A stretch of DNA of 64,000 bases from an uncultured Hormoscilla sp. (GCA_963921275.4 OZ001293.3:1376001-1440000), one strand, 5' to 3'; shown: positions 10,734-63,249, numbered from the stretch's first letter. Notes: a model not told the origin generated them from the letters alone. Numbers and translations are program-made.

Positions 10734-11438
10734 TCACTGGTCACCGTCTACCACTTCTGAAAGTTTGCCCCCCAGTAGATAGGTAGTCATTTGGCCTTTA
10801 CCTTTGATATTGATTGGTCTGCGTACCGTCAACTGATACTTATCCCGCAGCAGTTCATAGGTAGAAGCCGTGAGTTGGATAGTTCCCGATATGCCATGAG
10901 ATTCCATGCGGCTAGCGGTGTTCACGGTATCGCCCCACAGGTCGTAAATGAACTTTTTGGTGCCAATCACCCCTGCTACCACCGGTCCGCTGTTAATGCC
11001 GATGCGGATCTGCAATGCTTCGCCAGTTTTAGCATTAAATTCTGAAAGCCCCCGTTGCATATCCAGGGCCATTTCGGCGATCGCCTCGGCGTGGTCACTG
11101 CGAGGTACAGGCAAACCACCCACTACCATATAGGCATCCCGATCGTCTTAATTTTCTCCAACCCATGCAGTTCACTGAGTTGATCGAACTTCGAGAAAAT
11201 CAGATTCAGGAGTTCTACCAGTTCCGTCGGCGATCGCCGAGCCGAAATTTCTGTAAAGTCTACGATATCAGCAAACATCACCGTCACATCATCAAAGCTT
11301 TCCGCGATCGCGCTTTGAGCTTTTTTCAGGCGTTCGGCAATTCTCGCTGGCAATATATTATGTAATAATCGTTCCGTTTGCAGCTTTTGATAACGCAGGG
11401 CCGCATTCATTTGCTTGCGTTCAGTTATGTTGATCGCC
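10734..11438 (-). pseudogene. Class III adenylate/guanylate cyclase, 3' remnant
   Basis: VTVMFADIVDFT, KIKTIG|DAYMVVGG (1-bp frameshift near 11138), YDLWGDTVNTASRMES; upstream PAS-exit motif NITERKQ is cut by an antisense intron at 11439. Confidence 0.88.
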
Positions 11439-11996
11439 GTGCGATGAGTTCTAGCCTAACGTGTAAACACGGAACGCTAGCCTAGGAAACTAGGAACTCT
11501 GGTATTCATGGGGGTTAAATTCCCGTGCGATGAGTTCCAGCCTAACGTAGTCATATACGGAACGCTGGCCTAGGAAACTAGGAACTCTGGTAATCATGGG
11601 GGTTTAATTCCCCCTCCCCAGGTACAGGGGTAACCGCGTGAGGTGCTGCGAAGTAACATCATCGTGGTGCCAAGCGAGGACTCAAATGTAGGATAACTGG
11701 CGGCGAAATAAGGCTATATGCGCCGGACCAAAATGGTGACGTAGTTAGTACTAACGGTAGCGATTCGTCTTTTTCGTACTCAGATAACTACCGGGGTATA
11801 GTAGGAACCTAAAAGCGTCGCCCTCCGGATACTAGGGAACGAAGTAACCTCTCGTGAGCTGTCCAATAGGACCAGTCAGATGTGAAGCGCAAGCCACGGG
11901 TGGGAAAGATGGCCTCAGAAGCTAATGCCCAGGGTAATGTCTGTGGATAGGCTGACGTCGGTCGGTGATAGTAGGAAGTCTCGGGCAAAAGTAGCT
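11439..11996 (+). mobile_element. Deleted copy of the group II twintron (outer 5' end, inner 5' end, outer domain I-III part)
   Basis: GTGCG at 11439 and 11525; 11439-11701 matches 52599-52861 and 11702-11996 matches 53761-54055; lacks domains V/VI. Confidence 0.9.
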
Positions 11997-12493
11997 AAAT
12001 CTGCAAATATTTGATCCACGTTAGCACCCGTCTTTGCCGACGTCGGAAATATCCCTAGCACTTGTTCTCGATCGGCAAATTTGTTGGCTTGCAATATTTT
12101 TTCCATTTTTTCTGAATCAATCAGGTCTGCTTTATTCAAAGCAATTATCATGAACCTTTTCTGATTGACTGATAAAAATAGCTTAATATGCTCTGGCAGA
12201 CTTTCTATCGTTTGCGGGCGACTGACATCAACAACTATGATTGCCCCCTTAGCCCCCAGCAAATAACTAGGAGCGATCGCCTTAAATTTTGTCTGACCTT
12301 CTATATCCCATATTAGCATCTGCAAATTTTTCTGCTCTCCTTTTTCACTGGTTACTTCTACCTCCTTCCGGGATATTTTCACCCCCACCGTTGACAGATA
12401 CTTATCACTAAACTGGCGGTCTACAAACCTGCGAATCAGGCTCGTCTTTCCCACACTAAAGTCACCTATCATACATATTTTTTTAGATATCAT
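11915..12493 (-). CDS. Small Ras/Rab-like GTPase; native C-terminus replaced by antisense intron sequence
   Basis: G1 GDFSVGKTS, G2 STVG, G3 WDIEG, G4 NKAD, G5 SAK; residues after ...IFADLA are read from intron DNA (11915-11996). Confidence 0.88.
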   Translation of the reverse strand: MISKKICMIGDFSVGKTSLIRRFVDRQFSDKYLSTVGVKISRKEVEVTSEKGEQKNLQMLIWDIEGQTKFKAIAPSYLLGAKGAIIVVDVSRPQTIESLPEHIKLFLSVNQKRFMIIALNKADLIDSEKMEKILQANKFADREQVLGIFPTSAKTGANVDQIFADLATFARDFLLSPTDVSLSTDITLGISF

Positions 12494-24547: not shown

Positions 24548-25657
24548 AACCTGGTTTCAATGGATATCAGCAGCCAGATGGTGCTTCAATCAAGCCATTG
24601 CTATACTCAAAAATCAGAAGATTGGCAAATATGACCTACGCAAAACGGTCATGGATATGGCTCCATCTTGGGTAAGTCAAACCCCATATAGCCCACGCCA
24701 ATTGGCGGTATTTCAGGCTTATGAGGCACACAAAGCAGCAAGAAAATCAGGAGGAGATGCTAAATTTTGCTCAGTACGTGAATCTGTTAAGTCCATCGGT
24801 TTCAGAAAAATAACTGGAAAAAAGGAAATTTTTATCCAACACAGACCAAAGGATTAAGGTTCAAAGCAAGTGAGCCAATTATAGACAAAATGCACCATGA
24901 GCCTACATTGGTACTAGACAGAGGACGTTGGTTTATCTGTTATGCCATAGACGTGCCTAAACTGGAACCATTAAACAGTGAGCTAGCCATCGCCCTTGAT
25001 CCAGGTGTCAGGACATTTCTAACTGGGTTTGACGGTCAAGAAATTTGGGAGGTTGGCAAGTCTGATATGGGTCGTATCTATCGGTTAGCCAGTCATCTCG
25101 ATCGGCTAATGTCTCGAATCGGCTTATCTAAAGGACGCCAATTTAAGCGGCTACGGCACTGCCTGCGAAAGGCGGCACAAAAGATTCGGGTTAAGATTCG
25201 TAACTTGGTTGATGAACTGCATAAGAAAGCAGCCAACTATCTATGCACCAAGTACAAAGTCATATTTTTGCCTACATTTGAGGTTAAAAATATGGTCAAA
25301 CGAGGCAAGCGACGGTTGTCAACTAAGACAGCACGTAAAATGGTTACATGGTCTCATTACCGTTTTAAGCAAACGTTGAAGCATCAAGCAGCTAAATACG
25401 GCTGTGTTGTAGTAGACGTGACGGAAGAGTACACCAGCAAAACTTGCTCAAAATGTGGGCACATTCACATAAAGTTAGGAGGCAACAAACGATTTATTTG
25501 TCCCTCATGTGGTCACACTATTAGTCGTGATATTAATGGCGCTTTCAACATTTTGTTGAAGGCTTTGAGAGATACCTCCGCATCTGGCCTGATAGCTTCA
25601 TTCCAGATTGTGCCATACTCAGAAATTTCCGGCAATTACAAGATTTTTTCGGGTTAA
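24480..25657 (+). pseudogene. tnpB: IS607 TnpB nuclease (pro-Fanzor-like), frameshifted near 24800
   Basis: KKIRVYP..AARWCFN N-terminus; RuvC ALDPG, IFLPTF, VTEEYTSKTCSKCG, CPSCG, RDINGAFNI. Confidence 0.85.
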
Positions 25658-25753: not shown

Positions 25754-27482
25754 ATGGAAAGAAGAAAGAGTGGATATCCCTACGAGCTAAAGAAAGTAAA
25801 GAAAGAGACATGGAGAGATTCACCTGCTCAAATGAATGAAGATGGGAATCTTATTATTCAGGGACGGTCAGTTATGGAAGGCTGGCAGAAAGATTATATG
25901 GCAGAGTTTGCCAAAGTAGTTACTCAGAATGGAGGAAAAATATTAGAAGTAGGATTTGGAATGGGTTTATCTGCATCGTTTATTCAACAGTATGATAACT
26001 CAAGTTGCGACCTATAAAAATTGGATACAAAAAGCTATGATAAAGAGAATTATTTTCAACTCTAATCCCTTAGATGTAACAGCATGAATTGACTTGGGAA
26101 CAAATTGGTGATTCGACTAAAACAGGTTTCAACTTGTTTTCTTGTTACTTTTTGTATATATTCAAAACAAGAATATTCTTTTCTTTTTGAGTTCTTTTTT
26201 CGCAAAGGTTTTAACATTATACTTGACGACTCTTTTAGTAAATCCTCTAATTGATAATCATTATAAGCTTTATCTCCATAAACTATTGAATTTGATGGTA
26301 AGTCAAAGCCAAAAGATTGCAAAACTTTAACATCATTATAACTACCAGGATCTAGATAAAATTCTATTGGCTTTCCATTTTTGTTTACCAACATATGAAC
26401 TCTTAATCCATAAAAATAACGTTTTTTACTGGCAATATACCCTCGATATTCTTCCTTGTTATAAATTTGGCATCTATCAATCCTAATATTATCACATACT
26501 GGCACCGGGAAACTATCAAGAATATATTCTTGACCCGGATTGAGCTCTTTAAATGTTTGAGCTATAACTTGGAAGAAAAACATCCAAATTGGTTCGTCAA
26601 TATTGTGTAATCGACGATTGAACCTACTTTTACTTAACAGATTTTTTATATACTTGTGTTGGACCATAAATTGACAAGAGCGATCGTGGTGTCCTCCGAA
26701 AAAATATGCAGCAACTAATCCGACTGTCATCACTTCGGCATTGTTCATTTTTACTTGTGGATCTTCTTTTATATTTAACGCTTTTAGTAGCTCGTCACAA
26801 AGAACAAAAATTGTTGTAATCATATCTTCCATCATCTACATCCCCCAGCAATTAACTATTATTTTAGTACATTATAACCTATAAACAGCCAACCCGCCGT
26901 TTAGCACAAAAAAAATATAATTTTGTATCAAAAGCTACGAAATATCCCAAATATCTGTAAAGTCTAAGTGGGTAATTCATATTTTTTTTAATAGGTCGCA
27001 ACTTAGGTTATGATATTACTGAGCACATCATAATTGAACCCAATGATGATGTTTATAGAAATCTAGAGTCATTTGCGAGAAATGCAAAAAACAAGGTTAG
27101 CCCTGTTTATGGTATGTGGCAAGATGTAATCAAGGATATCGAAAAGTTTTCTGATGAGACGTATGATGGTATTTTCTTTGATGGCTCCCCTTTTGATGAA
27201 ATTGAACTACATCATCGTCAATTCCATTTTGGTAAACATGCCCATAGGTTGCTTAAAAAGGGTGGAATTTATAGTTATTGCAACTTGTGCTCGATAGGAG
27301 TCCTGAAAGATAATTACGATAGTTGGGAAAAGCTGTTCGAAGAGACACAAATACCTTACTTAAAGGAAATAGGGTTTGAGTCGAGCGAAATAGGTTTTAA
27401 AATCATGAATGTCAGGCCTTCTGATAATCATCCAAAGTACTCGCATTTGACGGCTATTATTCCATGGTTAGTAAAGACCTAA
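25754..27482 (+). pseudogene. Guanidinoacetate N-methyltransferase-like (GAMT/RMT2-type) SAM methyltransferase split by IS982
   Basis: VMEGWQKDYM, ILEVGFGMG; removing the IS and one TSD gives YDITEHIIIEPNDDVY...GMWQDV...YDGIFFD..RLLKKGGIYSYCNL...FEETQIP. Confidence 0.85.
25998..27008 (-). mobile_element. IS982-family insertion sequence, copy 1 (transposase frameshifted near 26099)
   Basis: IRs ACTCAAGTTGCGACCTAT / ATAGGTCGCAACTTAGGT; 7-bp TSD TATGATA; DDE motifs LDSFP, GDKAY, RKQVET. Confidence 0.92.
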
Positions 27483-33496: not shown

Positions 33497-33761
33497 AATC
33501 ACCCTCCTCAGCCTTCCAAGCTGACTGGCTTTGGGGGGTAAAAATAAAAAAGTTGCAGGAGAAGTCCGAGACCCACTATGACCATTACGACGCCTACGCT
33601 AAGTACTGAAACTCTGAAACCTCAGTTAAATAGCTCATTTCTCCAACGGCTCCAGAGTCCAGATCGTCCAGTGATAATCTTTGATGGCACGATGGGAACT
33701 AACCTGCAATCCCAAAACTTGACCGCCGAGGATTTTGGTGGAGCGGAATATGAAGGTTGTA

Positions 33762-34596
<835 letters not shown>

Positions 34597-37152
34597 ATGA
34601 ATATTTAGTTATCACTAAGCCAGAGGCAGTGGCAAAGGTCCATCGTGATTTTCTCGCAGCGGGGGCAGATGTTGTCGAGACCGATAGCTTTGGCTCTAGC
34701 CCCTTAGTCCTCGCAGAGTACGATCTAGCCGATCGCGCCTACGAGCTAAGTAGAAAGGCGGCAGAGTTGGCGCGCAGTTGTGCGGATGAGTTGACGACTC
34801 CGGAGAAACCAAGATTTGTCGCAGGTTCCATCGGTCCAGGAACCAAGCTACCCACCCTCGGTCATATTACCTATGATGAATTGAAAGCGAGCTTCATGGT
34901 GCCTGCAGTTGGTCTCTATGACGGGGGAGCCGATCTTTTCATCGTGGAAACCTGTCAAGATGTTCTGCAAATTAAGGCGGCATTGAGTGCCTTTGAGGCG
35001 GTGTTTGCGAAAAAAGGTTCGCGACTCCCCTTAATGGTGTCCGTGACCATGGAAATCCAGGGAACCATGTTGGTGGGGACGGATATATCTGGGGTACTGG
35101 CAATTCTGGAACCCTTCCCCATTGATGTTTTGGGGCTAAATTGTGCGACAGGTCCGGATTTGATGACTGCTCATATTAAGTATCTGTCAGAAAATTCGCC
35201 GTTCCCCATTTCCTGTATTCCCAATGCGGGGCTACCAGAAAATATTGGCGGTCGGGCGCATTATAAAATGACCCCCCTAGAATTTAAAACTTCCATGTCT
35301 CAATTCATTGCGGAACATGGGGTTCAGATTGTCGGTGGTTGCTGCGGTACGCGCCCAGAACATATTAAAGCTTTAGCCGATGCTGTGGAACAGACCCCAC
35401 TAAAAGAGCGATCGGTGCGAAAAAATGCCGTGGGTGAGATTCGATCGCCTCTCTCCTATACGCCAGCAGCAGCTTCCATTTATTCCGCCCAAACCTATCA
35501 GCAGGATAATTCTTTTTTAATCGTTGGCGAGCAATTAAATGCCAGTGGTTCTAAGAAAGTCCGCAAGCTTTTGAATGAAGATGATTGGGATGGGTTATTG
35601 GCGATCGCTAAATCCCAGGTCAAAGAAGGCGCGCATATGCCCAACGTAAACGTAGATTACGTTGGGCGCGATGGAGAACGGGATATGCGAGAACTGGTAT
35701 CGACTGGTGACCAATACGACCCTCCCACTGATGCTCGACTCCACCGAGTGGACAAAAATGGAAGCGGGTCTCAAGGTCGCCGGGGGCAAATGTTTGCTCA
35801 ATTCCACCAACTATGAAGATGGGGAGGAGCGATTTTTTAAAGTGTTGCAATTGGCAAAAGAATATGGTGCAGGGGTTGTCATCGGCTGTATCGATGAAGA
35901 GGGAATGGCTCGAACCGCCCAGAAAAAATTCGAGATTGCCCAACGGGCTTATCAGGATGCGCTCAAGTTTGGGATTCCACCCCATGAAATTTTCTATGAC
36001 ACCTTAGCCCTACCGATTTCAACTGGGATTGAGGAGGATCGGGAAAATGCCAAAGCAACGATCGAATCAATTCGACTGATTCGGGAAAATCTACCCGGTG
36101 TCCATTTTATGCTGGGGGTCTCTAACATTTCTTTTGGCTTGAGTCCAGCCTCTCGCATCACCTTAAATTCGATCTTCCTGAATGAAGCGATGAAAGCTGG
36201 GATGGATGGGGCGATTGTCTCGGCTGCCAAGATTTTGCCGTTATCGAAGATTGCCGAAGAACATCAACAGGTCTGTCGCGATTTGATTTATGACAATCGC
36301 GGATTTGAAGGGAATATTTGCACTTACGATCCGTTGACGAAGCTGACGGAAATTTTTGCGGGTGTGAGTACAAAGGATGCTAGAGCGGGTTCTTCCTTAG
36401 CAGATTTGCCCATCGACCAACGCTTGAAGCAACATATTATTGATGGTGAGCGGATTGGATTGGAGGATGCGTTAAAGGTTGCTTTAGATGCAGGTCATAA
36501 AGCACTGGAGATTATCAATACTTTCTTGTTGGATGGGATGAAGGTTGTGGGCGAACTGTTTTGCTCTGGTCAAATGCAATTGCCCTTCGTGTTGCAGTCA
36601 GCCGAAACCATGAAATCTGCCGTGGCTTTCCTCGAACCCTACATGGAAAAAATCGAAGGAGAGGACGAAGATCGCGGTAAAGGGAAATTCCTGATTGCTA
36701 CCGTTAAAGGCGATGTCCATGATATCGGGAAGAATCTGGTGGATATCATCTTGACCAATAATGGCTACAAGGTCATCAATCTGGGCATTAAACAAGCCAT
36801 TGAGGCAATCGTCGAAGCCTATGAGCAGCATCAGCCTGATTGTATTGCCATGAGTGGCTTGCTGGTGAAGTCCACAGCATTTATGAAAGAAAATCTCGCA
36901 GCATTTAATGCTAAAGGCATTACAGTCCCAGTGATTTTAGGCGGTGCGGCACTCACCCCAAAATTTGTCTATGGGGATTGTCAAGAGACTTACCAAGGGC
37001 AGGTCATTTACGGTAAAGATGCTTTTGCCGATTTGACCTTTATGGATCGGCTGATGCCCGCCAAAGAGCAGCAATGCTGGGTGGATACCGAAGGCTTTAC
37101 AGGGGAATTTGCTCAGTTTAACCAAAAGGGACGCAAGGCGATTGAAGATTTA

Positions 37153-37224
37153 GATCGAGAACTCAATGGTGATGGGCAGAAATCCGATCGAGAACTCAAT
37201 GGTGATGAGCAGAAATCCGATCGA
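37153..37224 (+). repeat. 33-bp in-frame tandem duplication in the metH linker
   Basis: [24 protein letters not shown]. Confidence 0.85.
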
Positions 37225-38230
37225 CCCACTGTCATCGATACCGAACGCTCGACAGCGGTAGCGATTGATATCGAACGTCCTGCGCCGCCTTTCTGGGGGA
37301 CGAAAATTCTTCAGAGTGGGGCTCTAGAGTTAGAAGAACTGTTCTGGTACATGGATTTGCAGGCACTGTTCGCTGGCCAATGGCAATTCCGTAAACCGAA
37401 AGACCAATCTCGCGAGGAATATGATTAATTCCTGGCATCGAAGGTTTATCCGATCTTGGAAGAATGGAAGCAAAAAATTCGCACGGAACAATGGTTGGAG
37501 CCCACTCTAGTTTATGGTTATTTCCCCTGTGCAGCCATAGGCAATTCCGTTCATGTTTACGAGCCAAGTGTCATTGAGCAGGGCTTAACACCCACAACAG
37601 CAACCCCGTTTGTCACTTGGACATTCCCCCGTCAGAAATCCATGCGTCGGCTGTGCATTGCTGATTTCATCCGCCCCCTCGAACACAATCAATTTGATGT
37701 CTTGCCTATGCAGGCAGTCACTATGGAAGAAATTGCCACCCAGAAAGCACAGGAACTTTATCGAGACAACAAGTACACCGATTATCTCTATTTCCACGGG
37801 ATGGCGGTGCAGTTGGCGGAAGCCTTGGCAGAATGGAGTCATGCCAGGATTCGGCGGGAATTAGGTTATGGAGATTTAGAGCCAGATAACATTCGCGATG
37901 TATTAGCCCAAAGGTATCAGGGTTCTCGGTATAGTTTTGGCTATCCAGCTTGTCCGGTGGTCATCGATCAAGTGCCACAGTTGCAATTATTGGGATGCGA
38001 TCGCATTGGGGTATCGATCGATGAGAGCGAACAGCTTTATCCAGAGCAATCGACCACTGCGTTTGTCATCTATCATCCTGTCGCTAGATATTTTAGTGCT
38101 TAGATCGATCGGCAATGGGGTCGCGTTGAAATCCAGGCGACCTCTAATTTTTCTTGATAATTGCTAGGCATCGGCATAGCTCCTTTAGCCTAAATTTCAA
38201 CTGGATTGGCTTTCAAAATAGAGGTCTCTA

Positions 38231-50741: not shown

Positions 50742-51002
50742 TTTTTTCCAGCAGTAGAGAGGTGAGCTTCAGGGACGACATGAGCCCTCAAAAGCTTACT
50801 AGATAAGGCTTTGAGGCCAATAGGTTCGAACAAGATACAGTCGCATCAGTACCATCCTTTCATTTTCATGAAGCTCAAACCCTTATAACTACGTCGTCTG
50901 TCTGCCCAAAACAGCATGTATCTTGTTGAAGCTTATGGGCTGAAATTCTTACGCTCGTATGGATTTCAGCAGGCATGTCGCCCCCCCAGGAGAGGTGAGA
51001 AG

Positions 51003-52165
51003 TGTTTACTGAGCGTGTCTGTCAAAAATTTTCGTTGCTTCCAGGATTTCTCGATCGACTCCCTGGAGCGGGTAAACTTGATTGCTGGCAAAAAAAATGC
51101 GGGCAAGACGACGCTGCTAGAAGCCATATTTTTGCTGACAGCTGGAACAAATCCAGGTATCGTGGTGACACTGGCAGCTGGGCGTAGTGTCGAAAGGTTT
51201 AACTCATCAGCAGCGACGGAGTGGGTGCATCTCACTTTCCCACGGGCGAAGCCTTTGGATAGTAAAGTTGTCTATCTATGACTTAGATTGTCGTCCAAAG
51301 GCTTCGCCCCTACAGATATATTCGCAAATATGAGATGCACCCGACGGAGTTGCTATTCGCGCCTTTGTTCTCAAACTTTGATAATCAGAATCCTATTAAG
51401 ATCGGCAGCTTACAGATAAATGGCGATCGCCATTTAGTAGAATTATAGAGCGTTACCAGGAAATCGACCTGGTTGGTAGTTGAGGAGGGGATGAATTACA
51501 AGGTCGGAAATAACAATCATATCGAGGATTGCAACTTAAGTATACAAGTACATCTGGGAAAATTTTGTTAAGCAATATCTGGCAGGACGCGGAAGGGATA
51601 AAGGTCGAACAGCTGTCAAAAAAACCACCGTCAATTCCAGCATCATTTATAGCTGCTCGTGGGGCTCCAGCATCGGCAGCAGCACAATTAAGTTGCTTAG
51701 AAGTGGAAAAAGAGGAATATCATATTGTGGAAAGCTTAAGGATTGTCGAACCAAGACTCCAGCGGTTAACTACTGGATTGGTTGCAGGTATACCTGTAAT
51801 CTATGGCGATCTAGGTTTAGAACGGTTGCTGCCCTTGTCGATAATGGGAGAGGGATTGCAGCGCCTGACTTATACTGGCGATCGCGAGGCAGGAAAATGT
51901 TATAGTGTTAGTAGACGAAATCGACAATGGTTTCCAGGGCTCGATAATGGAAAAAATTTGGTATGCTATAGGTAAGGCTGCGCGTAAATTTGATACCCAA
52001 GTGATAGCAAAAACCCACAGCTACGAATGCATTCAAGCTGCTCATCAAGCTTTTACGGAAAGCGAAAATATGATTTTAGGTATCATCGATTTGGATCGTC
52101 TAGACGATTTTTATCGCGCTGTCACCTACGATAGGGAAGATTTGGAAGTTGCCATGAATACTGAA
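51003..52165 (+). pseudogene. AAA_15/AAA_21-type ABC ATPase, fragmented
   Basis: KNFRCF, Walker A GKKNAGKTT, signature MGEG, Walker B LVDEIDNG, THSYE; contains a MITE, stops and frameshifts. Confidence 0.8.
51223..51342. mobile_element. 120-bp MITE in the AAA gene
   Basis: 12-bp TIR GGGTGCATCTCA / TGAGATGCACCC; 8-bp TSD GACGGAGT; internal hairpin gggcgaagcctttgga / tccaaaggcttcgccc. Confidence 0.88.
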
Positions 52166-52598
52166 TTTGCGGCCCTTTTAAGACACATGCAAATAGAGGA
52201 TATTCAAGTTAAAATTACTGAGGGAGTAGATAAGTTAAAAGCATTTGTGAAGCCCTTATGTAAATCTAGGAATTTTCTAAGAGGAAAATCCCTAGTAATA
52301 GTCCGGGATGCCGACGATAATACGGCTAATAGATTTACCAGCGTTTGTAATAGAGAAATGTAAATGTAGCGGTTATCTGGGCAAATTTGCCAGTTCCCAA
52401 GGAACAGATAAGGCCGACAGGCGATCGACCGCAAGTAAGCGTTCAATTCTGCCAGATACCACAAGTCCAGGAACGTTAGAAACGCTGTGCTTGCGAACGG
52501 TTAGCGAAGACTCCGTGATGAGTTGTATCGAGGAATATTTCGACTGCGTGCAGCAACGGGTGGCCAAACCGCCCAAAAGTAAGGATATGGATAAAGCT

Positions 52599-54297
52599 GT
52601 GCGATGAGTTCTAGCCTAACGTGTAAACACGGAACGCTAGCCTAGGAAACTAGGAACTCTGGTATTCATGGGGGTTAAATTCCCGTGCGATGAGTTCCAG
52701 CCTAACGTAGTCATATACGGAACGCTGGCCTAGGAAACTAGGAACTCTGGTAATCATGGGGGTTTAATTCCCCCTCCCCAGGTACAGGGGTAACCGCGTG
52801 AGGTGCTGCGAAGTAACATCATCGTGGTGCCAAGCGAGGACTCAAATGTAGGATAACTGGCAGCCCAAGCCGGTGACTCTGCTAGGAAAGATGTCCATGG
52901 CTAGAACAAGCGAACCTATGTAAACCTCGTTAAACCCAACCAGCGAAATAAGGCTTAATGCGCTGGAACAAAAGTTAATGCAGTTAGTGTTAATTAGGGA
53001 ATTGGCTAACATTGTACCCAAATAACTGCCGGGGAAAAGTAGGGGCCTAAAGGCATCGTGAAATGATACCAGGGAACGAAGTAACCTCAGCGAGGCTGTC
53101 CATTGGACAAGTTAGATGTAAAGCGCAAGCCCGCCGGGGAGGGATGTCCTAAGAAGCCAATGCCCAGGGTAATGCCTGTGGATATGCAGACGTAGGACGG
53201 ATATGGTAAGAAGCCTTGGGGAAAAGTAGCCGATCATGTCATAAACTCAAGGAGCAATCCTGAAGGATGAATGATGGACTAAAATCCTAGCCGGGTAAAA
53301 TTCAGTACCCCGAGTAAAAGTTAATGGGGAACATGTTAGCAAAGAGCGGCTAGTGTGGTTGGCTGGTTATCTCCCGCGAACCTTCCGGCGCTCGGTACTA
53401 TAACGGTCTGTTGACTGACCATAAGGGGCAAAATTTCATGGGGCAAGGGACAACGGGGGTAACCCCTAGTAATTCTGCTAATGACAAGAGCTTACCAACC
53501 AGTAGCCGTGTGCGATGAAAGTCGCTCTTCAGGTTCCGAAAGGGAGGGTTGGGAAGTGATTCCCAGCTCGACCCCGACCTCTCCCCAGGTACGGGGGGTC
53601 GAGGGTACTACCGGTCCTCACTGCTGCGGAATAACATCACCGTGGTGGCGAGCGAGGACTTAAATGTAGGATAGCTGGTAGCCTAAACTGGTGACTCCGC
53701 GCTTGTTAGACGCTCATGGTTAGAACAGGCAAATCTATGCAAGCCTCGTAAACATAAACCGGCGAAATAAGGCTATATGCGCCGGACCAAAATGGTGACG
53801 TAGTTAGTACTAACGGTAGCGATTCGTCTTTTTCGTACTCAGATAACTACCGGGGTATAGTAGGAACCTAAAAGCGTCGCCCTCCGGATACTAGGGAACG
53901 AAGTAACCTCTCGTGAGCTGTCCAATAGGACCAGTCAGATGTGAAGCGCAAGCCACGGGTGGGAAAGATGGCCTCAGAAGCTAATGCCCAGGGTAATGTC
54001 TGTGGATAGGCTGACGTCGGTCGGTGATAGTAGGAAGTCTCGGGCAAAAGTAGCTCTAAGTATGTTATAAGCCCGTCGCTGATGTGATAGCGAAAACTAG
54101 TCGGTGATTGAGGAATAAATTACTGGTAAAACACCAACCAGTAAAGGAGTCAAATCGCGTGAGACAAGGGACAACGGGAGTAATCCAAAAGTTACCGGCC
54201 ATTGACAACGGGCCTACTACCCAGTAGCCGGATGCGGTAAAGAGAGTCCGGTTCCGAACGGGAGGGTACCGAAGCGATTCCTAGGGAGACCCCTAAT
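52599..54297 (+). ncRNA. Outer ORF-less group II intron of a twintron
   Basis: GTGCG 52599 to GACCCCTAAT 54297; removal restores GCT|AAA in frame; domain V partly deleted. Confidence 0.9.
52685..53579 (+). ncRNA. Inner ORF-less group II intron nested in domain I of the outer intron
   Basis: Second GTGCG after ...AAATTCCC; own domains V/VI ending GACCCCGACC; removal restores attccc|tctccccagg as in sister introns. Confidence 0.9.
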
Positions 54298-54448
54298 AAA
54301 GTGAAGGTGTTTTTGGCTTCAAGAGAGGATCCGACATTACTGCTGGGACAAGCGGCTCAGCGTAAATACTGGAATTGGGATCGCCCAGCCCTCTCTCCAG
54401 TAAAATAATTTATACAAGCACTATAGATGAAAATCGAGTTAAAGTATC

Positions 54449-57815: not shown

Positions 57816-58610
57816 CTAACCACTAACAGCGATCTCAACCGTTCGCTCTGCCACTTTCATCTCCAGAGTATGAGAATAGTCTTTGAGTTGTTCGTACAGC
57901 AGCGCATTTTTGATCGCCGCCGCTGCTGGTGTTGTTAGCGCCGCGAACATTTTCAAATCCTCTGCTGTATAATTTACAGGGTAGGTGTTGCTGATTTTAA
58001 TTACGCCAATGGTTTCGTTCCCGATTGTCGTACAAATCAGCGAACTGATCTCGTTTTCTCCCTCCTGGATATATCTGGAATCTGACAGGTGGCCAGCTAT
58101 TCCCTCACCCGGTCGAATTACTATTTTCTGGTTGGACTCTGCACCCCGTGCCGCGATCGCCTCCATGGCTCCTGTTTTCTCATTCAGCAACATTACAAAA
58201 ACTTGGGTGGCATTAATCAGTTTCTTCGTTTCCGAAATTACCAATTCCGTCACTGACTGAATTCCCTTACAACTAGCTATTAACCTTGCAAATTCGTACA
58301 AAAAGTTAATCTCTTCGTACTTACTTAAGGTCTCCTGAGCCAAAGTCTTTTTCTCTAGCTCGGTTTTGGCTATATAACTGAGCATCTCGGCCAGAAAAAC
58401 TGCCCGAGCAGATCCTGTTACCCAGCCAATTACTTCCGATGCTGCGGAGATCGGATACTTTGGTGAGACCAACTGACTGTCCGTACCTAACAGAATCATA
58501 CCCTTGGCATCCCGAATAGTGATATTCTCATCTAAAGCAGAGATCGCACCGGAGACCACTGACGTTACATCCTTCTTGGAAATCAGCTTCTTGAGATTTA
58601 TTTTAACCAT
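57816..58610 (-). pseudogene. GAF-domain signalling protein, paralogous N-terminus, truncated before the output domain
   Basis: Similar to the 57297-57674 N-terminus; ends at YSHTLEMKVAERT and runs into heptamer repeats. Confidence 0.65.
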
Positions 58611-58631
58611 ATACTTGTTTATCTATTAATC

Positions 58632-60449
58632 ATTAGGGGTCGAGCTGGAAATCGCTTTCCAACCCTCCCGTTCGGAACCGTGCATGCGACTTTCACCGCA
58701 CACGGCTACTGGGTATCAGGCCCAAATCATGGGTAGATAACTTTTGGATTACTCCCGTTGTCCCTTACTACTTGTATGTTTGCCCCTTTCCTGGTTAGTT
58801 ACCAGTGATTCATTCCTCGATCCGATGGCTCGCTTGCGCTATTGTTGCGAACGGGCTTATGACGTTTTAAGGCTACTTATACCAGTAGTTTCCTGATATC
58901 ACCGACCGACGTCAGCATATCCACAGGCATTACCCTGGGCATTAGCTTCTTAGGCCATCTCTCCCACTCGTGGCATACGCTTCACATCTGACTGGTCCTA
59001 TTGGACAGCTCACGAGGGGTTACTTCGTTCCCTGATATCATTTCACGAGGCTTTTAGGTCTCTCCTGTATACCGGCAGTCCTGAGCGGGTACGATATTAA
59101 TGAGTAAATAACATTAACTCAAGTTGCGACCTATAAAAATTGGATACAAAAAGCTATGATAAAGAGAATTATTTTCAACTCTAATCCCTTAGATGTAACA
59201 GCATGAATTGACTTGGGAAACAAATTGGTGATTCGACTAAAACAGGTTTCAACTTGTTTTCTTGTTACTTTTTGTATATATTCAAAACAAGAATATTCTT
59301 TTCTTTTTGAGTTCTTTTTTCGCAAAGGTTTTAACATTATACTTGACGACTCTTTTAGTAAATCCTCTAATTGATAATCATTATAAGCTTTATCTCCATA
59401 AACTATTGAATTTGATGGTAAGTCAAAGCCAAAAGATTGCAAAACTTTAACATCATTATAACTACCAGGATCTAGATAAAATTCTATTGGCTTTCCATTT
59501 TTGTTTACCAACATATGAACTCTTAATCCATAAAAATAACGTTTTTTACTGGCAATATACCCTCGATATTCTTCCTTGTTATAAATTTGGCATCTATCAA
59601 TCCTAATATTATCACATACTGGCACCGGGAAACTATCAAGAATATATTCTTGACCCGGATTGAGCTCTTTAAATGTTTGAGCTATAACTTGGAAGAAAAA
59701 CATCTAAATTGGTTCGTCAATATTGTGTAATCGACGATTGAACCTACTTTTACTTAACAGATTTTTTATATACTTGTGTTGGACCATAAATTGACAAGAG
59801 CGATCGTGGTGTCCTCCGAAAAAATATGCAGCAACTAATCCGACTGTCATCACTTCGGCATTGTTCATTTTTACTTGTGGATCTTCTTTTATATTTAACG
59901 CTTTTAGTAGCTCGTCACAAAGAACAAAAATTGTTGTAATCATATCTTCCATCATCTACATCCCCCAGCAATTAACTATTATTTTAGTACATTATAACCT
60001 ATAAACAGCCAACCCGCCGTCTAGCACAAAAAAAATATAATTTTGTATCAAAAGCTACGAAATATCCCAAATATCTGTAAAGTCTAAGTGGGTAATTCAT
60101 ATTTTTTTTAATAGGTCGCAACTTAGGTTAACATTAATACGCGAACTGCTTTCCCTTTTGGGCCAGCGTAATCAGCATTTTCGCTGGATGGTGTTGACGA
60201 TACTTACAGAGATTTGCTTGTTCTAACCATGAGCCTCTTTCCTAGCGGAGTCGCTGGCCTAGGCTGCCAGCTATCCTACATTTAAGTCCTCGCTCAGCAC
60301 CACGGCGATGTGCTCCGCAGCACCTCCGACCGGTGTCACCCCCGCACCTGGGGGAAGGGAATTTAACCCCTATGATGATCAGAGTTATCTGGCAAATGAA
60401 ACCAGACCAGACTTTCGCCATTGCTGGCTTACGCCCGAACGAATCGCAC
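58632..60449 (-). ncRNA. ORF-less group II intron disrupted by IS982
   Basis: Minus strand GTGCGATTCG at 60449; intact domain V AGCCGTGTGCGGTGAAAGTCGCATGCACGGTT; end GACCCCTAAT at 58632. Confidence 0.9.
59117..60128 (-). mobile_element. IS982-family insertion sequence, copy 2 (TGG>TAG at 59704-06)
   Basis: Near-identical to 25998-27008; 8-bp TSD TAACATTA. Confidence 0.92.
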
Positions 60450-60532
60450 AAATACTCTACACCCCCTTGGGCGCAATTACACCAGCTGCAACGTCAGCTG
60501 TAAGTTGTTATTTGCTTTGTCCGTATAGCCTG

Positions 60533-63249
60533 TCAGCACCATCGGTTATAGCAGCTCAAAACTCTCTGGAGTTCCGCTGATCGCTCCTGGGCCTGAACGA
60601 GTAATTTTCCTTGTTGTAGGGCTACTCCCAGCTGCAGGGCAATTTTGCTAGCAAACTCAATTTCTCTGGACTGCCATTGGCGCGGTGCCGAACATTGGTG
60701 AATGCACAGCAGGCACCAAAGCTCATTCCCTTTTAATAAAGGTATAACTAGGTTGGCTCTGTGCGATTCGTTCCGGTATAAGCCAGTATGGTGAAAATCG
60801 GGTCTGGTTCCATTAGCCAGATAACTCTGGTAATCATGGGGGTTAAATTCCCCTCCCCCAGGTGCGGGGGTGACACCGGTCGGAGGTGCTGCGGAGCCAC
60901 ATCACCGTGGTGCTAAGCGAGGACTCAAATGAGGATAGCTGGCAGCCTAAGCTGGCAACTCCACTAGGAAAGAGGCTCATGGTCAGAACAAACAAATCTC
61001 CGTAAGTATCGTTACATAGAACCAGCGAAAAGGCTGATTGCGCTGGCCCAAAAGGGAAAGCAGTTCGCGTATCAATGCTGTGGCCTCATTGATATCGTAC
61101 CCGCTCAGGACTGCCGGTATAGAGGAGAGACCTAAAAGCCTCGCGAAATGATACCAGGGAACGAAGTAACCCTTCGTGTGCTGTCCTAAAGGACCAGTCA
61201 GATGTGAAGCGCAAGCCGCGAGTGGGAAAGATGGCCTAAGAAGCAAATGCCCGGAGTAACGCCTGGGATATGCAGACGTCGGTCGGTGATAGTTGGAAGT
61301 CTTGGGTAAAAGTAGCCCTAAATATGCCTACAGCTCGGGGGAAACCTGTCAGAGATGGATAAGCTCAAGGGGCCAAATCTCATGAGACGAGGGACAACGG
61401 GAGTAATCCCGAAGTTACCTACCAGTGACAAGGACCAACTACCCAGTAGCCGTGTGCGGTGAAAGTCGCATGCACGGTTCCGAACGGGAGGGTTGTCCCG
61501 CGAGGGACAGCTCGACCCCTAATCACCTGAAAACGTGCGAGGATAGCAATATGGCAATCGCTCAGCCGAGCGTCATATATGTCATTGACTGCAAAAAAAT
61601 GACCGCGCTGAGATCTTTGTGCATACTCTTCTCCAAAGCAGTGGTCCTCTACCTTTGCCGCCAGTGCCGAGTCAAACTCTGGCAGCACATCTTCTGAGAC
61701 AATGGAGCCCTCATTCCAGCCCGAGTCTGGCGCGAAGCGAAATACAGCGACTCGATCGGCGTTCAGTAGTTTACGGACTTCTGTCGCTGCGGTTTGGAAA
61801 ATGCGGTCCAGGTTTAAAGTACGGCGAATTTTCTCGATCACCTCTGCTAAAGCTCTCTCCCGCTGAGCTTCTCTGGCTAACTCTTCTGCTCGTTGTCGCA
61901 ATTGAGAATACAGAGCCGTTTCCAGTTCCTCTTTTCGCTGCTCTGTCTGGGCTAGTAATTCCGCTTGTCGGACTGCCACTCCTAGTTGAGCGCTAATTTG
62001 AACTAGTGAAGTTTACCTCGACTTTTTCCCAATGGCGGGGTCCGGAATTTTGAAAAGCTGCTAGCAGTCCCCAGAGCTTTTGACCTTGATAAATCGCCAC
62101 AATGGCATAAGCTCTCCCTTTATAACTTTCTAGGGCCTGAATGTAGCAGGTAGAAAAGCCTGCCTCGTAAATATCATCGCAGACCCGGAACACCTCACCC
62201 CGACTGAAGGAACCTCCTTCAGTCTCTTGCAAGTAGGTATCTGCTATGGGAGAGTTTGCCAAATTTTTCAGGCTACATTCGCTGATGTTCTGGCACAGTT
62301 CTGGATGTTCCAACTGCTCCTGCATGAGAGAAGTCCATCCCGAAGCTACTGACTCCACAACGAATTGGCCACTCCAGTCTGGATGAAAGCGATAGATCGC
62401 CACCCGATCGGCTTTCAGCAGTTGCCTAGCTTCTTCTACCGTTGTCTTGAAAATGATATTGATATCGAGAGACCTGCGAATTTTATCAATGATGGTGGCC
62501 ACTGCTTTTTCTCGTTCTACTGCTTGGGCCACTGCTATTGCCAGTTCCTCTGCATGTCTCCGTTGCCGCGCTAAAGCCTCCGCTTGCTGTACGGCCACAC
62601 CCAAATGACCGGCAATTTGGCCGACAAACTCAATTTCTTTCTCTTGCCATTTGCGGGGCCCCGAACATTGGTGAACCGTCAGCAACCCCCAGAGCATGGG
62701 TGCTGTCCCCACCGCCGTTCCTTTGAGCAGCGGCATCACTAGGTTGGCCCTAAATCCCAACCCTGCTAGGATTGACTTCATGCAATCTTGCATTTCTATT
62801 TCATCGAAGTCGTCAACTACCCAACACCTACCCCGCTGATAATAGATGCCGTACTCTCCTGCAAAACAGCGGTCGCGGATCTTCAGTCCCATAATTGAGT
62901 TATAAGGGGGCCGCACGTCCTCCGAGACAAATTCACCCTCCTCCCAGCTAGAGTCTGGCTCGAACCGATATATTCCTACCCGATCGGCCTCCAGCAGTTG
63001 GCGAACCTCACGGGCTGTTGATTGAAAGATTGTCTCTAGATCCAGGGACTCGCGGATTTTGGCAATTACCGCGAACAGGGCTTTTTGCTGGGCCAGTTCC
63101 AGAATTTGCGGCGATAACTCTGTCTCTAGATATATGACTCTTTTCTTTAGTTCTGATACTTCTTGCTGGAGCGACTCGTAAATGGAAGTTTCTATGGTGA
63201 GATAATTGTCAGAGAACAGATAGGACAAAGCACGCCTTAATTTTTTCAT
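60533..63249 (-). pseudogene. Triple-GAF cyanobacteriochrome-type photoreceptor, broken
   Basis: GAF1 DRCF, GAF2 NISECS..DTYLQET..CY, GAF3 DHCF..CH; frameshift near 61995; antisense intron; no output domain. Confidence 0.8.
60761..61523 (+). ncRNA. ORF-less group II intron, antisense within GAF3
   Basis: GTGCG to GACCCCTAAT with intact domains V/VI; removal restores LARFQV|RANLVIPLL on the minus strand. Confidence 0.93.

Follow-up and report, generated by a model that had tools for sequence, protein, structure and literature searches.

How did one group II intron come to lie inside another in an uncultured Hormoscilla sp., and was it directed there by its own guide sequences? The question is raised by positions 52599-54297 of a stretch of 64,000 nucleotides from this organism (GCA_963921275.4 OZ001293.3:1376001-1440000), the whole of which is called the window below. 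A first-pass annotation described the locus as a twintron of two introns without an open reading frame (ORF), whose inner member is a hyperparasite specialised for insertion into other introns. The twintron is real, and it is probably a relic: an ORF-less IIB-type intron would have entered a sister intron by a guided, retrohoming-type insertion, the composite would have been copied, and decay would have followed. The earlier reading is supported in part, but an active, specialised hyperparasite is not shown. The guides fit a family-wide site at 13/13 positions, but a single insertion event is seen, other sites are empty, and domain V (D5) of the inner intron is mispaired.

Family copies in the window were located by profile search. 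They are three sister introns (A, B, and C), the nested pair, and a second copy of the pair at 11439. This second copy goes beyond the first-pass annotation, as do the EBS2 and EBS3 matches and the D5 defects described below. A site-motif search of genome contigs gave at least nine further loci (L001-L009), from three Hormoscilla assemblies; the source genome is not among the matches listed.

A Complete Intron within a Sister Intron

The inner intron and both segments of the outer intron (Table 1) adjoin in the alignments with no gap and no overlap. Without the inner intron, the outer intron is 804 nt long (86 + 718) and colinear with its sisters. In the nhmmer search, profile positions 1-90 correspond to 52599-52684, positions 1-825 to 52685-53577, and positions 89-827 to 53578-54297. 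GTGCG is the 5' end of both introns, and the 3' ends GACCCCGACC and GACCCCTAAT align with the ends of the sisters. A complete intron lies within another, and taking it out restores the outer one. The annotated arrangement, an 895-bp ORF-less intron in a domain I hairpin of an ORF-less host, is thus borne out by the alignments and the profile.

The host gene agrees with these boundaries. Excision of 52599-54297 joins the exons of a DUF3226-family gene in frame at profile positions 164/166, and the outer boundaries are confirmed by this restored frame. The metH reading frame around intron A likewise supports the intron boundaries of the family. No ORF longer than 60 aa is present in any frame within 52599-54297. 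A search of a protein collection with a 60-aa frame over the inner/outer 3' junction (53481-53660) gave no candidate and did not recover even the query; it is uninformative.

The 5' ends of the two introns resemble each other. Between the initial 86 nt of the outer and the initial 88 nt of the inner intron, identity is 89% (78/88 columns), compared with 71% (497/698) for the remainder. At positions 8-10 both carry GAG, in contrast to TTC in the other 12 aligned copies (GAC in L008b). In the inner intron, this variant disrupts two pairs of the basal helix. The likeness may point to gene conversion between the adjacent inner and outer repeats.

The Occupied Hairpin and the Loop of Exon-Binding Site 1

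The D1-D4 models of Rfam gave no usable match to the nested pair. The sole match, to group-II-D1D4-2 (17.8 bits, E 1.1), was over the inner/outer junction, and intact sister A was not matched at E up to 1. Since these models fail to recognise the family, its own covariation was used. Ten copies were aligned over domain I, three from the window and seven from the related loci. The outer intron and C, which would need joining, and L002 and L007, which have a deletion in subdomain Id, were left out. The RNAalifold consensus contains 94 pairs. In this model, 96.8% of cells are paired, against 40-47% when the partners are slid by 1-3 columns. Changes on both sides are seen in 39 pairs, against 3-8 in the slid controls, and 0/500 shuffles attained the values observed. 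The structure is derived from the same sequences and is therefore favoured over the slid controls, but the margin is large all the same.

The occupied site is in helix 4, the first hairpin past the basal stem, with 5 bp and a 7-nt loop. All of its cells are paired (100%), and two of its pairs are compensatory in L008b, with both sides changed. As the insertion follows the third base of the 3' strand, three base pairs and the hairpin loop remain joined on the upstream side of the inner intron.

Exon-binding site 1 (EBS1) of the inner intron had been placed at GGGAATT (52997-53003). This motif lies entirely within the terminal loop of helix 16, where 6/9 stem pairs are changed on both sides. Between the loop of the second hairpin and an internal loop 3' of helix 16, pairing is kept in 50/50 cells, against 18-54% in slid controls. 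Pairing of this alpha-alpha' type marks Ib and Id3, and because it is kept in all cells, the EBS1 hairpin is assigned to Id3. We take the names Ia, Ib, Id3, and alpha to apply here, Ia by its position. The covariation model, the alpha-alpha' pairing, and the EBS register agree with the annotated EBS1 loop, and in the available part of a published account EBS1 is located in the ID3 stem-loop (PMC3866642). By eye, no convincing delta-delta' partner was found; at the base 5' of EBS1, the inner intron has A and all seven sisters read have U, and the bulge is AAA.

The family has the features of IIB (B2-like) introns that are given in the available text of PMC4649490: the 5' sequence GUGCGAUUC, an insertion in the basal stem, an EBS2 without a stem, and an EBS3 candidate. 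GTGCGATTCG is the 5' start in 12/14 aligned copies, L008b with GTGCGAGACG being counted loosely, while the inner and outer introns start with GTGCGATGAG. In domain I, about 45-95 nt are inserted in the basal stem, separating helix 1 from helix 3. In the domain I model, EBS2 sits in a junction and has no stem of its own.

Guide Elements and Their Flanks

EBS1 is the exact complement of intron-binding site 1 (IBS1), AATTCCC at 52678-52684, at 7/7 positions, with coordinates and sequence as annotated. EBS2 of the inner intron (AACCC, 52933-52937) pairs with IBS2 (GGGTT, 52672-52676; 5'-exon positions -9 to -13) at 5/5 positions, and its alignment columns and register are those of L001, L003, and L004. 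The candidate EBS3 is A at 53037, the third base of the 3-nt Id bulge, opposite T at 53580. The EBS3 column is complementary to the 3'-exon +1 base in 8/9 introns by Watson-Crick pairing and in the remaining one by G-U, and the runner-up column reaches 6/9; as it was picked among ~1100 alignment columns of related sequences, the assignment is tentative. Together, the guides of the inner intron fit the occupied site at 13/13 positions (7+5+1), of which the EBS3 share is a candidate. The chance of 7+5+1 Watson-Crick pairs in fixed columns is ~4^-13. The EBS columns were fixed beforehand from the sister introns, so the match is not a scanning artefact.

Eleven intron/flank pairs were scored, with six EBS1 columns against positions -1 to -6 and five EBS2 columns against positions -9 to -13. 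The orthologous duplicates L005, L007, L008a, and L009 were excluded; for the outer intron, the flank at 11439 was used. The scores with own exons, out of 11, were 11, 10, 8, 9, 5, 11, 10, 11, 10, 10, and 10 (mean 9.5), and 8/11 introns reached at least 10. Non-cognate combinations of EBS and exon had a mean of 4.9 and a maximum of 9. The inner intron scored 11/11 with its own flank, and position -7 pairs too. Lower own-flank scores were obtained for A (8/11), B (9/11), and the outer intron at 52599 (8/11). Intron C scored 5/11; its EBS1 loop is broken by an insertion sequence (IS). The guides of the outer intron are AGCGAT (EBS1) and ACATA (EBS2).

Conservation and Occupancy of the Target Site

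Within the window, the target site is found in all copies of the family (A, B, C, and the inner intron itself), as had been proposed for the motif (A/G)ATTCCC. In A (33838-33852, +) it reads GGGGGTTAGATTCCC, with G for A at -7. In B (60838-60852, +) and C (60357-60371, -), IBS1 and IBS2 are the same as in the occupied site, and +1 is C in B. The C site (60356-60369, minus strand) fits the guides at 13/13 positions, yet it is empty. The inner intron also carries the site in a hairpin of its own (Table 1). In total, five matching sites in the window are empty, namely those in A, B, and C and the own site of the inner intron in its two copies.

All seven window matches to GGGTTNAATTCCCT with at most one mismatch are in family introns. 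Outside the family introns only two matches were found, each with two mismatches, where 1.85 are predicted by chance. Chance alone would give fewer than one 13-nt target in a genome of a few Mb. Because the target is this rare and all window matches with at most one mismatch are in family introns, an intron with these guides can target only sister introns.

Among the matches listed, the site is carried and empty in 9/9 Hormoscilla loci, and both IBS1 and IBS2 are present there. The EBS1 sequence GGGAAU is found in 0/7 distinct introns read from these loci. Several independent insertions at the site were not seen, either in the window or in the listed loci; the two identical copies amount to a single event.

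L005 (1120/1121) holds another nested insertion of the family, elsewhere in domain I, just upstream of the EBS2 region. There, an intron starting with GTGCG begins directly after ...CAAATCTCTGTA of a 5'-truncated sister, and the inserted intron is cut off before its own EBS elements.

The Second Copy of the Composite

The copy at 11439 is identical to the full twintron over 263 + 296 nt, in both inner and outer parts and with the same junction. Because the junction is shared and both parts are identical, this copy is considered to be a copy of the composite and not a second insertion. It has an internal deletion of 899 nt at a GGC microhomology, which joins non-homologous positions, and it is truncated at the 3' side, with nothing beyond composite position 1457. 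Homologous recombination at the length of the inner intron was rejected as the cause of this deletion, given its length (899 nt, not 895), its non-homologous ends, and the GGC microhomology.

The EBS of the outer intron fit the flank at 11439 (5/6 + 5/5) better than that at 52599 (4/6 + 4/5). A site of the 11439 type therefore looks like the better home, and 52599 an ectopic location. The 11439 copy is antisense between an ORF for a Roc/Ras-type GTPase (11915-12493, -) and a split adenylate/guanylate cyclase domain (10734-11410, -), and the end of the GTPase ORF reads into the intron fragment.

Decay of the Introns and the Host Gene

The inner and outer introns are degenerate members of a bona fide group II intron family. 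Sisters A, B, and C exceed the gathering score of 40 for D5 and domain VI (D6) in the Rfam model Intron_gpII (RF00029), with 46.6, 43.9, and 45.7 bits, whereas the inner intron reaches 23.1 bits, and its D5 is not canonical. The fold of the inner D5 is -9.8 kcal/mol, compared with -14.3 to -17.7 kcal/mol in five sister copies. For the outer D5, Rfam found nothing at E up to 10, and the neighbouring D6 has an altered 3' strand. With these D5 lesions, neither splicing step, inner or outer, is predicted to occur now, and present splicing activity of the nested introns is unlikely.

The DUF3226 host gene is frameshifted, with profile positions 15-80 in another frame (ORF 51905-52363). Other genes in the window are also split into two or three frames: metH beyond intron A (33562-38103), the cyclase domain (10734-11410), and an AAA ATPase with the DUF3226 partner (50916-52607). 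These are either widespread pseudogenes or indel errors of the assembly. In its present state, the locus is a decayed relic within a gene that has itself decayed, and nothing hints at a cellular role.

Origin of the Nested Pair

The insertion itself is likely to have proceeded as follows. An ORF-less group IIB-type intron would have reverse-spliced into the DNA of a sister intron and then been copied in. Its point of entry would have been in the 3' strand of the first hairpin past the domain I basal stem (subdomain Ia), between bases three and four, with its own EBS1, EBS2, and EBS3 directing the insertion. To splice, an intron with these EBS must pair with a matching 5' flank, so the donor copy was probably also resident in a sister intron. 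Its movement would have depended on a reverse transcriptase (RT) encoded elsewhere. The composite would then have been copied at least once more, as found at 11439 and 52599. Decay would have come afterwards, with the inner D5 mispaired, the upper helix of the outer D5 and part of D6 lost, one copy deleted and truncated, and the host gene frameshifted. As a speculation, a compactly folded inner intron might be tolerated as an appendage, which could explain the movement of the composite.

A match of 13/13 in pre-defined columns is neither chance nor the expected product of recombination between repeats; it was the intron RNA that guided the insertion. That the junction arose by DNA rearrangement or as an assembly artefact between repeated introns, with a coincidental EBS match, is barely credible. 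The family is indeed repeated and rearranged, with fragments, inverted junctions, and deletions. However, the breakpoints are the exact first and last bases of a complete intron, they are at non-homologous positions of the two partners, and the same junction is found at two loci with different flanks, quite apart from the chance of ~4^-13 for the 13-position match. It is also very improbable that the intron was inserted ectopically at a partly matching site and that its EBS later changed to fit the flank. Imperfect sites are known in the family, as the scores of A, B, and the outer intron at 52599 indicate, and the EBS/IBS pairs co-vary across it. Such adaptation could arrive at 13/13 only through several coordinated changes spread over three separate EBS elements, and the same copy gained three disruptive changes in D5, contrary to selection for splicing.

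More weight can be given to an active lineage of ORF-less ribozymes that is specialised for the Ia hairpins of sister introns, occupies many sites genome-wide, and is mobilised by the RT/maturase of another intron, although we regard it as unlikely. The guides fit a site that every family copy carries, a donor would have needed the same flank to splice, the twintron junction occurs twice in 64 kb, and ORF-less introns mobilised in trans at a conserved sister-intron site have a precedent in Thermosynechococcus elongatus (available text of PMC2882425). On the other hand, the two junction copies are identical in inner and outer parts and represent one event. The five matching window sites are empty, including the 13/13 site in C, as are the sites in the listed Hormoscilla loci, where the inner EBS1 is absent. 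The inner copy has three D5 mispairs. No RT or maturase domain was found among the 37 ORFs of the 64-kb window, nor in 24 frames of at least 150 aa in L001-L009 (about 45 kb among the matches listed). The loci compared among these matches are from genomes other than the source genome, which is represented by the window.

A broader idea, that of a lineage with all three EBS fixed on the core hairpin of its own family, living only inside other introns in a host where ORF-less group II introns reach a very high density, is tentative, and we consider it more doubtful than not. If it is true, every sister intron would be a homing site, and so would the own copies of the lineage, with one mismatch at +1. 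The site in domain I would make folding of the outer intron depend on removal or compact folding of the inner one. The relation would be that of a parasite on a parasite, with a direct cost to the outer ribozyme.

Several points weigh against a guided insertion followed by copying and decay. A single event can be examined, and it is complementarity that points to the retrohoming route. The two identical copies could mean very recent mobility of the composite, which fits poorly with an outer ribozyme that is dead. The other possibility is that the composite was copied first and the D5 lesion came later; as the 11439 copy has no D5, either order fits. Assembly indels could explain part of the split genes, which would weaken the argument from the frameshifted host gene. 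The 4-nt deletion and several substitutions in the outer D5 are less easily ascribed to such errors. The D5 defects are judged from pairing and the Rfam score, and certain degenerate organellar introns still splice with the help of proteins.

Family Members and Surroundings

The coordinates of the features are listed in Table 1.

Table 1. Positions of the nested introns, their exons, structural elements, and related copies in the window.
Feature	Position	Strand	Description
Inner ORF-less group II intron	52685-53579	+	895 nt; start GTGCGATGAG, end GACCCCGACC
Outer intron, 5' segment	52599-52684	+	86 nt; GTGCG, then domain I basal-stem insertion, to the first three 3'-strand C of the hairpin
Outer intron, 3' segment	53580-54297	+	718 nt; rest of the first domain I hairpin through domains I-VI; end CCCCTAAT
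5' exon, DUF3226-family gene	52308-52598	+	profile positions 80-164
3' exon, DUF3226-family gene	54298-54408	+	profile positions 166-199, then stop
Target hairpin of outer intron	52670-52684	+	GGGGG-TTAAATT-CCC; insertion point after 52684
Inner intron's own target hairpin	52758-52774	+	GGGGGTTTAATTCCCCC; IBS1/IBS2 same as target; +1 C rather than T; unoccupied
Id3-type hairpin of inner intron	52980-53029	+	helices 15 and 16; alpha' strand GTACC in internal loop 3' of stem
D5 of inner intron	53503-53536	+	34 nt; three mispairs in lower helix
D5 remnant of outer intron	54225-54254	+	30 nt; 4-nt deletion and substitutions; upper helix absent
Second twintron copy, deleted and truncated	11439-11996	+	outer 1-86, inner 1 to about 180, deletion, stretch matching 53760-54055
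Sister intron A	33762-34596	+	within metH-like gene; canonical D5
Sister intron B	60761-61523	+	canonical D5
Sister intron C	58632-60449	-	interrupted in EBS1 loop by 1018-bp IS (59114-60131)

Six ORF-less group II intron copies or fragments are present in 64 kb. The broader interest may lie in the host, whose cyanobacterial genome is densely filled with group II introns that are ORF-less, a kind described as rare in bacteria in the available part of a review (PMC4424553). The closest matches of these introns, among the matches listed, are in sponge-associated Hormoscilla assemblies. Literature searches for Hormoscilla together with introns, within the library used, found no paper. When the inner intron was compared with plasmids by blastn in distant mode, 11 records were obtained, covering at most 16% of the query. 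The best-annotated plasmid match, in Oscillatoria acuminata, is merely a 3' intron remnant beside an HNH fragment. The octamer GCGATCGC, presumably a cyanobacterial marker, occurs 36 times in the window against 0.69 expected. The window contains one rRNA operon.

The IS in intron C carries a transposase of the DDE_Tnp_1 type and sits exactly in the EBS1 loop. A copy with 99.7% identity is found at 25996-27010. Just upstream of it, at 24890-25657, is a TnpB-type ORF with OrfB_IS605 and Cas12f1-like TNB domains. A partial copy with 96.9% identity is present in a contig of Hormoscilla sp. GUM202 (L007, 1-711), where its neighbour is an intron fragment interrupted in the loop of the same Ia hairpin. 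Introns C and B break a run of GAF-domain ORFs (57816-63249, -): C is on the same strand and contains the IS, and B is on the opposite strand and therefore cannot be spliced from the GAF transcript. Short GC-rich palindromic insertions are observed within introns at the Hormoscilla loci. The D5 of the L001 intron (minus strand) is split by one of about 120 nt, and others of about 22 and 40 nt are in domain I of the L006 copy and the L007 fragment.

Comparison with Known Systems

Insertion of introns into introns is already known, and the comparisons here follow the available parts of the cited papers. In T. elongatus, the ORF-less F3 introns TeI3a-e are inside the F1 introns TeI4a-e (Mohr, Ghanem & Lambowitz 2010, PMC2882425). 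The authors name insertion into sister introns as a mechanism of proliferation, with other mobile elements as harmless new sites. As in the window, the host is a cyanobacterium with a multiplied IIB-type family, and an ORF-less intron was inserted by EBS/IBS guidance at a conserved site of sister introns. The T. elongatus site falls between the first two ATGs of the intron ORF, in domain IV, whereas here it is in the ribozyme core in domain I. Five outer introns, diverged from one another, are occupied by identical inner introns in T. elongatus, in contrast to one event here. The outer introns of T. elongatus encode RTs, and mobility was measured there (PMC2882425), while both partners here are ORF-less and no RT is in view.

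Repeated site-specific homing into related group II introns, 'a perpetual homing site', is reported for Methanosarcina acetivorans (PMC4424553). The likeness lies in the site-specific homing into related introns, and deletions by recombination are reported there too. Arrays of up to five nested introns occur in M. acetivorans (via PMC4424553 and PMC2882425), in contrast to the single nesting found here. The idea of a 'safe harbour' in other introns has already been stated for T. elongatus (PMC2882425) and M. acetivorans (PMC4424553). In the window, the nesting is in a domain I hairpin. The targets in the 2003 work of Dai and Zimmerly on M. acetivorans are said, from its title, to be intron ORF sequences.

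The twintron in Tery_4732 of Trichodesmium erythraeum is likewise cyanobacterial, with the inner intron within domain I of its host (Pfreundt & Hess 2015, PMC4649490). Its host intron shares with this family the 5' sequence GUGCGAUUC, the basal-stem insertion, the stem-less EBS2, and EBS3. Both introns of Tery_4732, however, carry ORFs for intron-encoded proteins (IEPs) and belong to different subgroups (B2 host and B1 inner), and the site is next to theta. Its sequential splicing was shown experimentally, and no conserved family-wide target is described in the available text of that report (PMC4649490).

The zombie twintrons and the self-invading cox1i1149g2 in mitochondria of Lycopodiaceae likewise show insertion into a close relative, there the intron itself (Zumkeller, Gerke & Knoop 2020, PMC7049729). 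The inner intron there is fossilised, with lesions around domains V and VI and weakened EBS-IBS pairing. That system is organellar and has its site in domain IV, and the outer intron is still spliced with the inner one in place. Here, in contrast, D5 is damaged but the EBS-IBS pairing is preserved, and the outer intron looks dead as well. In the plastid mat1f twintrons of Porphyridium purpureum, one inner intron occupies the same site in two related outer introns, and all belong to one IIB family (Perrineau et al. 2015, PMC4476101), which resembles the present case. It differs in its domain IV site, its IEP-encoding inner intron, and its plastid setting.

The distinguishing feature of the Hormoscilla locus is the family-wide target in the core of domain I. 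The locus is a clean case from bacteria of an ORF-less intron whose three guide elements, EBS3 as a candidate, all fit a conserved hairpin of sister introns. If more copies exist, they would offer a natural system for the ordered folding and splicing of nested ribozymes and for intron populations that make their own target sites. The target is in the catalytic domain I, in contrast to the tolerant domain IV that is occupied in the Thermosynechococcus, Porphyridium, and lycophyte cases.

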